Of a stretch of 64,000 nucleotides of DNA, positions 31,220 through 49,928 are shown piece by piece. The notes under the pieces are model-generated. The model was not told the origin of the DNA, ran no database searches, and saw only the letters and a program-made list of their open reading frames with translations. Both the position numbers and the translations under genes were made by a program. Position 1 is the stretch's first letter, and each line of letters opens with the position of its first letter. Source of the stretch: a virus (Duplodnaviria; Caudoviricetes); IMG/VR virus record IMGVR_UViG_3300028048_003227, positions 32,001 to 96,000 of that record, one strand, 5' to 3'.

Positions 31220-31430
31220 AGGGTGCGATATTGAAAAATGGGTTATAGTAATGCCCTTGCGTGAACCCATGAGTCTAAATTGAAATTGTATAATGGATAT
31301 TCCGGAGTAGTTCGTCGGTATCATTTGGGTTTAGAACGTGATTGTTCCCATTATGCTTACTTGCAAGATTTCAACCAGCGACAGACCACGGAGTAATTTC
31401 CAAGGAATACACTAACAAGGGACGCACCCT
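31220..31430 (+). ncRNA. Unassigned structured RNA with predicted pseudoknot
   Basis: Terminal stem AGGGTGCG/CGCACCCT; ATGGGTT/AACCCAT hairpin whose loop CCCTTG can pair with CAAGGG near the 3' end; no ORF in the track. Confidence 0.55.
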
Positions 31431-33643: not shown

Positions 33644-33771
33644 GAATATGTGAAGCAGATGGGATGTGCTACTAGAGAAAATCAAAACGCTAGGCACCTA
33701 CTTGAAAAAGTTTGATAGGGAGTTAAGAGAATGTTATTTAGGCTATGTTGGTTCGAATCCAACCATATTCA
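33644..33771 (+). ncRNA. Atypical tRNA-like element with enlarged central region
   Basis: Acceptor GAATATG/CATATTC and perfect T-arm GTTGG-TTCGAAT-CCAAC; no canonical anticodon arm. Confidence 0.55.
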
Positions 33772-34365: not shown

Positions 34366-34519
34366 CGGGATGTAGTTCAGTTGGTAGAATGCCTGGTTTG
34401 GTTACAGTTAACCAATAGCTGAGAAATTGGTGTTCGGATATAATAAAGGAAGATTCATGAGTTCGAATCTCATATATCCGACGACCAGGTGGTCCTCCGT
34501 TCGAGTCGGAGTATCCCGA
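34366..34519 (+). tRNA. tRNA-Pro(TGG) interrupted by an 81-nt insertion (34402-34482)
   Basis: Joining 34366-34401 and 34483-34519 gives a complete cloverleaf with CCTGG-TTTGGGA-CCAGG. Confidence 0.85.
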
Positions 34520-34557
34520 CTTAATAAATGTCATTTAATATTTTATTATATTTATAT

Positions 34558-35418
34558 ATGATAAATATTTGTAAATATTGTGGCAAAAAATTTGAAACTT
34601 CTAACTCAAAACAAGTTTTCTGCAGTAAAGAGTGTAGTGCAAAATATCAACAACAAAATGCAATAGATAGTGTTAAAAAATATAAAGAGATTCGAATTCA
34701 AAAGTATTACGAATCTCCAAAGAAATGCAAATATTGCGATTCTATTTTACCGTATGAAGAGAGATCTAAAACATTTTGTAATTCTTCTTGCGCCGCCGCA
34801 TATAATAATTCAAAAAGAATTAGACATTCTTGGAGTGATGAACAGAAAAAGAATTTATCTGAAATAATGATTAATAAACACAAAGATAATTATAATGATA
34901 ATTCTTCAAACACCACAACCACACCCAGAAAGAAAATATGTAAGTATTGTGGAAAAGAATTTGTTTCTCATCAATTATCAAGTGGTAAATATTCAAGTTC
35001 TAAATTTTGTTCACATGAATGTAAAAGGTTAAACAATATAGAAGTTGGTAAAAAAGCTATAATCATAAACAAAGAAAAAGGAACGTGGAAGCCTTGGCAA
35101 AGTAGAAATATTAGTTCTTATCCCGAAAAATTTTTCGAAAAGGTTTTAGATAATAACTTTATATCATATATAAGAGAAAAATACATTGATGGTTATTTTT
35201 TAGATTTTTATATAGAGAAAAACAATAGAGTTATCGATTTGGAAATAGATGGGGATCAACACGAAGAAACACAGGAAAAAGATCGAATAAGAGATGAATA
35301 TTTAAAAGATCAAAATATTGAGGTGTATAGAATTAAATGGAATTCTATTAATTCAAATAAGGGAAAAGAATCTATGAAAAACAAAATAGATGATTTTTTA
35401 AGTTTCTATAATAAATAA
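34558..35418 (+). CDS. Free-standing endonuclease (zinc-ribbon repeats plus DUF559/Vsr-like domain)
   Basis: Three 'CKYC...FCS..C' units; 'YFLDF...LEIDGDQH...DRIRD...VYRIKW'. Confidence 0.78.
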   Translation: MINICKYCGKKFETSNSKQVFCSKECSAKYQQQNAIDSVKKYKEIRIQKYYESPKKCKYCDSILPYEERSKTFCNSSCAAAYNNSKRIRHSWSDEQKKNLSEIMINKHKDNYNDNSSNTTTTPRKKICKYCGKEFVSHQLSSGKYSSSKFCSHECKRLNNIEVGKKAIIINKEKGTWKPWQSRNISSYPEKFFEKVLDNNFISYIREKYIDGYFLDFYIEKNNRVIDLEIDGDQHEETQEKDRIRDEYLKDQNIEVYRIKWNSINSNKGKESMKNKIDDFLSFYNK

Positions 35419-35428
35419 ACTCATATTT

Positions 35429-36120
35429 GGCCTCGTGGTGGAATAGGTAGACACAAGGGACTCGTAAAGCATTGATTTATAATCATTATAATCAATTATG
35501 GGTTGCACCCTCCGAAAGGAGAGATGTAGAACCTCCCTAATTCGGTGAAAGCTAAGTTTGGATGTACAGGAATGTATCGGATAATCGTCTAAATTAGTTG
35601 GTGAATTATCAACAGTAGTACATAGTTAACTGATTTTCAGTAATGATAGCAGTCGTTTAGAATCTATGTGTAAGAAGACAGTCCAGATATGCTAATACCG
35701 AGCCAATGTTAAAATTACGAAATAGGTGATGCCGTAGGTGAATAGCTTCAGCCGAAAGTACAACACGCCGACCAACCCCAGCGGGAGTATGTTCGTAACC
35801 AATAGACAGTGTGTAGAGACTATACAGGAGGGACCTAAGTTGAAAGTATAATAATGGCGCGAAATTTAGTTAGTTTGTTAACTGCTAATACCGATTATAG
35901 AGATGTATACTCTTCATATCGGTGCTAAAATAAGGTTATTATCTTGCAAGATTTCAATATGGTTAAGAGAGAGTCCAGACCACGAACAATGTTCTCAATA
36001 GATTAAAGAGTTTATTCGCCTACATGGTTCTATTGAATGAAGTTGGTAGCAAAAGCTATAGTGGTACGTAAAATCCCTCGGACAGCAATGTCCGTGCCGG
36101 TTCGACTCCGGCCGGGGCTA
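35429..36120 (+). tRNA. tRNA-Leu(TAA) interrupted by a group I intron
   Basis: Exons 35429-35462 and 36069-36120 give AGGGA-CTTAAAA-TCCCT and a long variable arm. Confidence 0.88.
35463..36068 (+). mobile_element. Group I intron (606 nt, no ORF)
   Basis: 5' exon ends in U and intron ends in G; core elements AATTCGGTGAA (P), AATACCGAGC (Q), GTAGAGACTA (R), AAGAGAGAGTCC (S). Confidence 0.88.
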
Positions 36121-36212: not shown

Positions 36213-36221
36213 CACTCATAT

Positions 36222-36338
36222 ATCACTTTAGCTCAAGAGTTCGTTATCAAAGACACGTTGGTCTTCGAGACTGACGTTATAAAAGAGCCCCGGATTTTAC
36301 TGGGAGATGTGCCGTGCAACGAGTAGGTACAGGTGATG
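36222..36338 (+). ncRNA. Degenerate or expanded tRNA-like element
   Basis: ATCACTT/AGGTGAT acceptor, GCTC/GAGC D-stem with a very large loop, CCCGG/CTGGG arm, enlarged T-loop. Confidence 0.45.
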
Positions 36339-36344
36339 ATTTAT

Positions 36345-36437
36345 TACGGATTAGCTCAGAGGTTAGAGCTTAATTGGATGAACCCGAGTTCTTACATAAG
36401 GCATCAGTGGTCGTAGGTTCGAATCCTGCATCCGTAG
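36345..36437 (+). ncRNA. tRNA-like element with expanded anticodon arm
   Basis: Intact acceptor TACGGAT/ATCCGTA, D-arm and T-arm; anticodon region about 20 nt too long. Confidence 0.6.
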
Positions 36438-37104: not shown

Positions 37105-37179
37105 AGCCTTGTAAGCTTAATTGGTAGAGTCCTGATCAGAAGGTCGGGGGGGTTAAGAGTTCGAATCTCTTCAAGGCAA
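37105..37179 (+). ncRNA. tRNA-like element with non-canonical anticodon loop
   Basis: GCCTTG/CAAGGC acceptor, perfect T-arm, arm CCTGATC-AGAA-GGTCGGG. Confidence 0.55.
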
Positions 37180-38142: not shown

Positions 38143-38440
38143 CGACTTGTACAACTAACGCTTCACGGAATAAACTCGATGGATTGGAGAAACATCGGGG
38201 TGTGAACCGCAAAAGGTGATATAAGCAGGTGTAGGATGATGTCATTAACTCCAAATATAGGACATGTAAAGTAACACTGAAGGGTATCACTGGAAGAGTA
38301 CTAAGAGAAATCCTTTTTAGAGACTGTGTCAACATGTGTTAGTTTAGGTATTGCCCATCAACCAAGCAGTTGAATGGGGTAACGGGATCGCTCGAAGAAC
38401 GATTCTTGGGTTGGCCGCATTACCGTAAATGCGGCATTTT

Positions 38441-38600
38441 GGGAGCATAGCTCAGTTGGTTTAGAGCACCTGCCTTAATACAGGGTAATCCACTGTGACG
38501 GATTAGCAAGATGTTAAAAGTGGTGAAGTGCATAATAAGAGTTCGATTCTCTTCATCTTGCCCAAGCAGGGGGTCATTAGTTCGAATCTAATTGTTCCCA
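38441..38600 (+). tRNA. tRNA-Val(TAC) interrupted by an 85-nt insertion (38478-38562)
   Basis: Joining 38441-38477 and 38563-38600 gives CCTGC-CTTACAA-GCAGG in a typical Val body. Confidence 0.85.
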
Positions 38601-38796: not shown

Positions 38797-39176
38797 AGTT
38801 CTTTGAAGGTATAAGATAAATGCAGACAGACCTACTCCCACTATTGTAGGAGACTACCATGACAATAAATGGTTTAAACAGCACCCGGATCGTAAGTCGG
38901 GACCATGAGGAATGAGAGTTATATGAAAGTATAACCTATCTACAAACCAGTGAAACCTGAACGGAATCACTGAAGATATTGTAGTTTGTAATAATGGAAG
39001 TCTGATGAGAAAACAAGCTTATACTGATGTAGAGGCTTGCAAAGAGCAAAATCGGCAAATCGCGTAATGCCTTCGGTATAAACCCGACGTTGGTTGGTGT
39101 GTTGCAACGATAGTCAGAACACAATCGCTTATGTGGTTCCTGGAGTGGCTTATTGAGCGTAATCAATTAAAGAACT
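38797..39176 (+). ncRNA. Large unassigned structured RNA (~380 nt)
   Basis: Terminal pairing AGTTCTTTGA/TTAAAGAACT and at least eight internal hairpins including a GAAA tetraloop; no credible ORF. Confidence 0.6.
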
Positions 39177-49135: not shown

Positions 49136-49298
49136 TCAAGTCACACACCGAACATCAAAGACTTCACTAAATATAGTGGGGTCTTTTGTTATTTATATGT
49201 GAGTGTAAAACTCGCGTATTTTGCGCTTGAAACAGGTGAGATAATAAAATGGTTATCTTTTTTGTATAACTTTGTTAAAACGAGATTTAGATAGCAAA

Positions 49299-49928
49299 AT
49301 GAAAGGATTAGTAGATAACTTTGAACTCTTGGGTAGATACCTATTCGAAAAACGCACTCCCCTTACTGAAGATCAGTTCTATTTTCTTCAGATTCTTGTG
49401 AGAGGAAAAGATGGAAATCATGTGTGTGGCAATAATAAAAATAGACTTGTTAAATACTATGTGATTCGATCCAAGGAACAGTTACTCGGGTTGAAAGATG
49501 AGATAGTTGGTATATGTGGAGTTGTGAACGGTCGTGCATATATTCATCCAACTCGTAGGTCCTTAAAGGAGGTTGCTAATCGAGCTCTTGAAGATACTGC
49601 ACACACCTTTGTGTCACAGAACTGGATTGGATTGCGAGGTGTTTATTCTACTGCAGCGGGCCAGTCTTTTGTGAGTAGCGATAAACAGTTTATAGTAGAT
49701 CTGGATGACTTCACTTATGATCAAGCAAAGGAAGTGTTTGATTTTGTAAATACACTTCGTGGTAGGAAAGACGACATGGGCAACATCTCACAAATAATCC
49801 TTCCAACAGTACATGGTTATCATTTGATTACCAATGCGTTTGATGTTGGTGAGTTTACGAAGAAATACCCGGGGATTGATATTCATAAAAACAATCCAAC
49901 TCTACTGTATTATAAAGCAAGTAAGTAA
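49299..49928 (+). CDS. Phage protein with AEP/primase-like motifs
   Basis: 'FIVDLDD' (DxD) and 'PTVHGYHLI' (GxH). Confidence 0.45.
   Translation: MKGLVDNFELLGRYLFEKRTPLTEDQFYFLQILVRGKDGNHVCGNNKNRLVKYYVIRSKEQLLGLKDEIVGICGVVNGRAYIHPTRRSLKEVANRALEDTAHTFVSQNWIGLRGVYSTAAGQSFVSSDKQFIVDLDDFTYDQAKEVFDFVNTLRGRKDDMGNISQIILPTVHGYHLITNAFDVGEFTKKYPGIDIHKNNPTLLYYKASK

Follow-up and report, generated by a model that had tools for sequence, protein, structure and literature searches.

The tRNA introns known so far leave the RNA by one of two means, a large ribozyme or a splicing endonuclease that is absent from bacteria. The tRNA genes of Lak megaphages contain inserts that were reported as "enigmatic" introns, with the remark that the one in Thr might encode a tRNA (Devoto et al. 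2019; PMC6784885, Fig. 4 and Table S6), and a 2026 survey of jumbo phages restates this remark (PMC13037316). The Lak paper defines neither a consensus structure nor a boundary rule and offers no mechanism (PMC6784885), and the boundaries it predicts miss the true ones by 1-2 nt; we found no structure or mechanism paper following it in the literature outside subscription journals. The insert in a phage tRNA-Pro gene described here is a pseudoknot-leader variant of the family that was seen earlier in Lak and never defined. All four types of Lak intron (Tyr, Phe, Thr and Gly in the original naming) have the leader helix, 7-8-bp stem, T-arm and terminal C found here, and the Lak "Tyr" intron is identical to one of our inserts (L061). 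The proposal in an earlier note on this DNA that the insert is a candidate new class of tRNA intron is therefore too broad, as the class is not wholly new (PMC6784885). The Lak leaders consist of a hairpin and an A-rich tail, whereas the leader of the Pro insert is a full pseudoknot. New here are the consensus structure, the boundary rule, the range of the family and the stand-alone leader.

The window, by which we mean the whole stretch of 64,000 nt that was analysed, comes from a 112-kb virus record and contains a T4-like Gp23 capsid gene. The record shares protein sequence with a 221-kb contig, which indicates that it is a fragment of a large phage. The RNA runs containing the window stretch are bovine gut metatranscriptomes. 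Judging from relatives, the host is probably a member of Bacteroidales: one relative was binned with a Bacteroidales genome, and the hosts of Lak phages are Prevotella. A tRNA array lies at about 33.6-39.3 kb of the window and includes the two interrupted genes (coordinates are those of the window unless stated otherwise):

34366-34401, + strand: exon 1 of tRNA-Pro(UGG), positions 1-36, with the anticodon at its end
34402-34482, + strand: 81-nt insert at 36/37 of tRNA-Pro, a putative intron (boundary rule of about 60 homologues and insert-less Lak alleles)
34402-34433, + strand: leader of the Pro insert, an H-type pseudoknot that begins 3 nt past the 5' splice site (covariation; the leader family also occurs outside introns)
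34405-34410 with 34416-34421: leader helix 1
34411-34415 with 34427-34431: leader helix 2
34434-34481, + strand: tRNA-like domain of the Pro insert (stem, linker and T-arm), with a 15-nt linker carrying a D-loop-like GG
34434-34441 with 34474-34481: 8-bp acceptor-like stem of the Pro insert
34457-34473: T-arm of the Pro insert
34482, + strand: terminal unpaired C at the 3' splice site (C in 46 of 47 candidates, G never opposite)
34483-34519, + strand: exon 2 of tRNA-Pro, positions 37-73
34528-35418, + strand: free-standing zinc-finger/DUF559 endonuclease gene directly 3' of tRNA-Pro, a possible mobility helper
35463-36068: group I intron in tRNA-Leu(UAA)
38441-38477, + strand: exon 1 of tRNA-Val(UAC)
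38478-38562, + strand: 85-nt insert at 35/36 of tRNA-Val, a second member of the family that has the same plan and a different sequence
38563-38600, + strand: exon 2 of tRNA-Val (the joined tRNA has 85% identity to uninterrupted tRNA-Val genes in related phages)
96454-97932 of the genome: ATP-dependent OB-fold RNA ligase of the window phage

The insertion between positions 36 and 37 of tRNA-Pro is seen in the sequence as the earlier note described it (34402-34482), and so are the pseudoknot helices and the T-arm. That note had also read a 7-bp acceptor followed by a discriminator base. The acceptor-like stem stands, but the supposed discriminator A pairs, so that the stem has 8 bp and C34482 is the first unpaired base. 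Removal of 34402-34482 leaves a 74-nt tRNA-Pro(UGG) with C1:G72 and A73, and removal of 38478-38562 leaves tRNA-Val(UAC). ARAGORN misnames the insert-bearing tRNA-Pro gene as Ser or Val and the insert-bearing tRNA-Val gene as Gly. An Rfam search of the two genes with their inserts returned only tRNA matches.

The array holds further unusual sequences. Four tRNA look-alikes (33644-33771, 36217-36340, 36345-36437 and 37105-37179) have abnormal anticodon or D regions and lie outside the insert family; the first of them has a homologue in G005. A conserved RNA of about 200 nt at 38150-38350 has no Rfam match, occurs in about nine other phage arrays, and RNAs like it often stand immediately 5' of an insert-bearing tRNA (L108, L058 and L464). 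We considered it as a trans-acting partner of the inserts. Searches of three complete genomes with inserts (G001, G002 and G021) did not find it, so within their reach it is not required. At 38805-39165 there is a structured non-coding stretch (z = -2.3) with a depth of 37-60, the highest of any non-intron phage RNA in the RNA contigs; it has no Rfam match and no homologue among the compared loci. Outside the array, a structured non-coding RNA at 31220-31430 likewise had no homologue among the compared loci.

Patterns in which a T-loop is nested 28-31 nt ahead of a second T-loop picked up homologues in IMG/VR, in JGI metagenomes and in a single genome bin. Filtering left 40 distinct inserts (36 non-redundant), a set that contains one poor fit (L121), and whole-record, motif-free and model searches added about 20 more. 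Homologous inserts with covarying stem and pseudoknot, for which the earlier note had said to look, thus exist elsewhere: about 60 distinct ones, in large gut and rumen phages and in tRNA genes of 14 isotypes (Pro, Val, Phe, Arg, Thr, Lys, Asn, Gly, Ala, Tyr, Glu, Met, Leu and Gln). They lie in the anticodon loop at 34/35, 35/36 or 36/37, and once at 33/34. Among 50,697 records of cultured phages, no insert was found except in the Lak metagenome genomes. A GTDB scan of cellular genomes gave one true match (L248; RUG12352 contig 1, 287 kb), which holds at least two inserts; this contig carries a T4-like Gp23 capsid gene and is therefore phage DNA inside a Bacteroidales genome bin. The leader pattern alone had five matches in 401 genomes of the order, against two for the control, none of them close to a tRNA. 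A weak leader-like match (E 0.63) on the minus strand at L014:5086-5122 is not part of a tRNA and lies 5' of a structured stretch.

All members share one plan, consisting of a leader of 24-34 nt, a stem of 7-8 bp around a variable domain, and a single terminal C, with total lengths of 70-124 nt (70-85 nt in the short members). About two thirds of the leaders are H-type pseudoknots and the remainder are a hairpin with an A-rich tail. The variable domain is a full cloverleaf in L415, L364, L379, L101 and L421 and an acceptor plus T-arm in the window Pro insert, and in L459 and L467 there is no canonical T-arm. This series from cloverleaf to reduced forms suggests that the inserts descend from real tRNA genes. 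The linker GG is present in 34 of 34 linkers, and the count for the terminal C comes from a search with no constraint on that base. As the first search patterns demanded TAC(AG), the conservation of this motif is partly circular. The leader has no strictly invariant base, and its first pair is C-G, G-C or A.G depending on the member.

The helices are supported by covariation and lie well outside chance expectation. Of the 36 non-redundant inserts, 31 have a perfect 8-bp stem (0.7 in shuffles), and 20 of 34 have a second pseudoknot helix of at least 5 bp (2.1 in shuffles). In seven Pro genes 98.1% of cells are paired, with two-sided changes in 26 of 45 pairs, a score that was reached in 0 of 500 shuffles, and the slid controls are near 38%. 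The relatedness of the members inflates the shuffle figures, but slid controls, which retain the relatedness, score far lower. Most positions of the 8-bp stem show all four Watson-Crick pair types. Across 18 leaders 95.8% of cells are paired, with two-sided changes in four of the five pairs of the second helix, and here too the slid controls score far lower.

The boundaries of the inserts are fixed by insert-less Lak alleles, because these are equal to Lak-A1 genes minus the unit: subtracting the exact unit from the Lak-A1 Asn and Phe genes yields sequences of 70-71 nt that are letter-identical in an insert-less Lak genome. With these boundaries, the Lak intron gene listed as tRNA-Tyr(GTA) (MK250015.1, our L438; Devoto Table S6) proves to be a tRNA-Asn(GTT), and the one-base correction that Devoto et al. 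made to the boundary of the Thr intron agrees with our rule (PMC6784885). The rejoined anticodons also match the identity bases of the tRNA bodies (C1:G72 and A73 in 8/8 Pro, G73 in 6/6 Asn, U73 in 3/3 Thr and U73 in 3/3 Gly), and in the Ala member the body identity pair G3.U70 agrees with the rejoined anticodon. Boundaries moved by one base were rejected, since the resulting anticodons clash with the tRNA body. About 60 inserts obey one boundary rule at four loop positions and in 14 isotypes, which points to the insert rather than the tRNA body as what determines where the cuts would fall. We looked for a close insert-less allele of the window tRNA-Pro gene and did not find one.

Like the inserts described here, group I and BHB (bulge-helix-bulge) tRNA introns lie in the anticodon loop and leave exons that rejoin to a normal tRNA. 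Tests of ends, length, Rfam matches and helices bear out the earlier view that the Pro insert is none of group I, group II or BHB. The inserts have no P3-P7 core and no Rfam match to group I, are only 70-124 nt long and end in C rather than G, and the last base of exon 1 is T in 14, G in 12, C in 7 and A in 7, where group I expects U. The ends (GUGYG...AY), the length and domains V/VI of group II introns are not matched, again with no Rfam match. A full 4-bp central helix of the BHB type occurs in only 1 of 40 inserts, and the insert position is not fixed by the tRNA body. The inserts thus fit neither known type of tRNA-intron removal, yet they sit in phage genes that are often the only ones for common codons.

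The sequences make it likely that inserts of the Pro and Val type are removed by splicing. Removal is favoured by the fit between rejoined anticodons and body identity bases, by the compensated stem changes that insert-bearing exons retain, and by the finding that for most interrupted genes the phage has no other gene with that anticodon. The array is transcribed, as rumen RNA runs contain contigs identical to it (depth 2-10) and a circle of the group I intron of tRNA-Leu(UAA). This circle, of the form that self-splicing would give, is a 330-nt contig in run X2 that reads 35816-36068 and then 35478-35554 with no mismatch, and the group I intron RNA has a depth of 45-146 against 2-6 for its flanks. 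Among the joints listed from four rumen metatranscriptome runs, which were surveyed as contigs with a flank depth of 2-6, none spans either the Pro or the Val insert. The loose end seen at 38477 was rejected as spliced phage RNA, as it corresponds to an intact tRNA-Val of another organism.

The absence of a spliced joint from those listed would also be expected if the insert stays in place, so that the gene yields a tRNA-shaped decoy, or if the gene serves to make the inner tRNA-like piece, with the outer tRNA as a disabled scaffold. Several members do contain a full inner cloverleaf, and the array has further tRNA look-alikes with no usable anticodon loop. We nevertheless consider retention of the insert unlikely. 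All members keep a split 7-nt loop, U33, a purine at 37 and an anticodon that fits the body, features that would be purposeless unless the halves are rejoined, and decay is seen in the inner anticodon arms and D-stems while the outer exons are intact. The interrupted gene is usually the phage's only one for that anticodon, which also argues for removal, although insertion into a single-copy gene would look alike.

The leader is also found outside introns. A leader-only pattern identified 19 IMG/VR loci. Apart from introns, there are five loci (L431, L439, L441, L443 and L444) in which the leader stands between a conserved structured RNA of about 110 nt and an intact tRNA; in L446 it is 5' of a tRNA carrying a different, ORF-bearing insert; in L451 no tRNA follows; and in L450 and L452 it is 3' of two unrelated RNAs. 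In these stand-alone leaders, the conserved region begins at the base equivalent to the 5' splice site of the introns. This identity of the leader's 5' edge with the splice site, together with its occurrence outside introns, suggests that the leader is an autonomous module. The 8-bp stem and the C are likewise present in the tRNA or tRNA-like gene downstream of the leader in L431, L441, L446 and L452, so that the whole element occurs as an ordinary part of a transcription unit. It may be that a leader and its tRNA landed in an anticodon loop, where their own processing excises them. A stand-alone leader could also merely shield the 3' end of the RNA upstream.

Several of these loci have features of their own. 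The RNA of about 110 nt found in gut phage tRNA arrays (L446:623-733, L441:1134-1243, L451:6128-6235 and L431:4355-4539) always has the leader 3' of it, contains a covarying stem and has no Rfam match. In L446, from about position 763, the tRNA-Asn after the leader is interrupted by some 450 nt of inserted sequence that includes an endonuclease-like reading frame. At L452:5330-5510 (L455), an amber-suppressor tRNA is followed by a 55-nt pseudoknotted RNA, which may be theta-like and has no Rfam match, then by the leader and a tRNA-like gene.

The route that we favour, with about an even chance, combines a leader-directed 5' cut, an RNase Z-type 3' cut and sealing by an ATP-dependent RNA ligase of the phage. 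The 3' cut would fall after the first unpaired base past the 8-bp acceptor-like stem, following the rule of host RNase Z, and would leave a 5'-phosphate on exon 2. The 5' cut would be placed by the leader pseudoknot where the leader begins, 3 nt ahead of helix 1, whatever the loop position. The leader would do this by cleaving itself or by attracting a nuclease, and it might in addition hide the inner stem from RNase P. The two halves, held together as a tRNA, would be joined by the ligase, after end-healing if the 5' cut gives a cyclic phosphate. The position of the 5' site supports a role for the leader, since this site travels with the insert over four loop positions. RNase Z cleaves after the first unpaired base behind an acceptor stem (PMC3161902), and the geometry of the 3' boundary fits, the first unpaired base being the invariant C. 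The main antideterminant of RNase Z is C74 (PMC3161902), and reading the stem as 7 bp with an added -1:73 pair would make the terminal C a C74, which counts against an RNase Z cut. Recognition of the T-arm (elbow) cannot be obligatory, given the two members that have no canonical T-arm (L459 and L467).

An ATP-dependent RNA ligase is encoded in 4/4 complete insert-bearing records, and RtcB in 0/4. RNA ligases of the phage ATP-dependent type join a 3'-OH to a 5'-phosphate, so their end chemistry fits the product of RNase Z. The window phage also encodes phosphoesterases, and two complete relatives have kinase candidates. RNA ligases and tRNA repair kits are common in jumbo phages (PMC7824862), so the co-occurrence of ligase and insert indicates compatibility and is weak support. 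A search with T4 Rnl1 gave no match anywhere, its own control included. With regard to the route in the earlier note, a 3' nuclease of the RNase Z type and a ligase remain plausible, and its RNase P step fails. Anticodon shielding and conditional tRNA production, which the earlier note puts forward as possible effects, are hypothetical roles.

Two means of making the 5' cut have to be considered. It is possible, if doubtful, that the leader is a new self-cleaving RNA of very small size, with its cut where the leader begins, or that the whole insert of 70-85 nt self-splices. As a ribozyme, the leader would normally separate RNAs in phage tRNA transcripts and, with a tRNA attached to it, would turn that tRNA into an intron excised by ribozyme and RNase Z and sealed by the phage tRNA-repair ligase. 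Self-cleavage, an option raised in the earlier note, gains some support from the stand-alone leaders. The leader's lack of any invariant base makes it weak as a ribozyme; a nuclease for the leader was also not found.

A protein-free variant of removal would make the insert a miniature self-splicing RNA, in which a single active site, made up of leader, closing stem and terminal C, both cuts and joins; alternatively, the freed terminal C could attack the 5' site, with circularisation of the insert. The minimal core of leader, stem and C, with a dispensable middle, is in keeping with this, as are the invariant and unpaired terminal C, the movement of the element among unrelated phages in which we found no common dedicated enzyme, and a leader helix that starts at the cut site like P1 of the hatchet ribozyme (PMC6561176). 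Yet the short members have only 70-85 nt and a leader with no invariant bases, the hatchet core is missing with no match to RF02678, and guide pairing with the variable exons is not evident. The T-loop and GG kept in nearly all members are what recognition by tRNA-processing factors would predict. We regard self-splicing as quite improbable.

Nor does a dedicated phage endonuclease that recognises leader and stem and cuts both ends, with sealing by host RtcB or a phage ligase, seem probable. Loose sequence constraint combined with fixed geometry would suit recognition by a protein, the phage proteins are mostly of no assigned function in records that are mostly fragments, and RtcB is present in the host-side bin. 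Against this, searches of two complete insert-bearing genomes found no archaeal-type splicing endonuclease (EndA), protein-only RNase P (HARP), RNase Z fold or RNase P RNA (type A), and the splicing endonuclease family PF01974 was not found in five records, two of them complete. The only unnamed protein common to three insert-bearing lineages looks primase-like and was not found in the rest. This is a 209-aa protein (phrog_14949) encoded at 49272-49928 of the window and present also in Lak and in a 361-kb phage; a language model gave a lead to a cluster of AEP-like primases with PF24387 on 51% of it. As it is patchily distributed, we rejected it as a shared dedicated enzyme.

Finally, excision of the mini-tRNA by RNase P and RNase Z with religation of the exons, the route of the earlier note, accords with the conserved acceptor, T-arm and GG and with the geometry of the leaderless, CCA-ended inserts L012 and L191, but it is very improbable here, because the RNase P site (the 5' end of the inner acceptor stem) lies 24-34 nt within the insert and the leader would remain on exon 1, because RNase P works more slowly on a paired leader and an extended acceptor stem (PMC10731613), and because trimming could not halt at four separate loop positions.

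The insert is best explained as a mobile tRNA intron derived from a tRNA gene and the processing leader upstream of it. Near-identical Asn exons carry two different inserts at one site (L422 and L423). There is no target-site duplication, and junction redundancy is 0-1 nt in 33 of 40 inserts. Of 33 interrupted tRNA genes, 6 have a CxxC endonuclease-like gene immediately 3' of them, against 11 of 256 intact ones (p = 0.007, a statistic that ignores kinship), and the window tRNA-Pro likewise precedes such a gene, at 34528-35418. The inserts may spread by homing, with each insert shielding its own site. With a consensus, exact boundaries, about 60 variants and a stand-alone leader, the puzzle that the Lak introns have posed since 2019 becomes testable on a transcript of 150 nt. 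If splicing is borne out, the family would add a splicing route not known before and might also yield a new minimal ribozyme; should the leader prove to be a ribozyme, this would be a fourth route of tRNA splicing. The corrected annotations (the ARAGORN calls, and Lak "Tyr" as Asn) also bear on inventories of phage tRNAs and codon usage.

Three described systems resemble parts of the insert. Theta ribozymes, minimal HDV-like ribozymes that cut at their own 5' end, are, like the leader, small pseudoknotted RNAs in phage tRNA arrays. Those of gut phages (PMC10879173) are not introns and, as HDV-like RNAs, have a nested double pseudoknot, P3/L3 and a catalytic C in J4/2, whereas the leader is a single H-type knot with 0-1 nt between its helices and no space for P3/L3. 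The hatchet ribozyme (RF02678; PMC4604424, PMC6561176) has its cut site right at the 5' end, where a first helix of 3 or 6 bp begins, a geometry similar to that proposed for the leader. The hatchet register U1-A19, A3-U17 and G6-C14 resembles leader positions 1, 3 and 6, with an A opposite position 1 in 29 of 34 leaders and G6-C in 30 of 34, but the conserved hatchet core (the P2-P4 junction, U28-G31, G63-G66 and A73-A75) is missing from the leader. The leaderless inserts L012 and L191 belong to a sister type, tRNA-shaped and placed in an anticodon loop of a large phage with a ligase nearby, as here. They are tRNA-like from their first base, so that RNase P could cut their 5' end, unlike that of the leader-bearing inserts described here.
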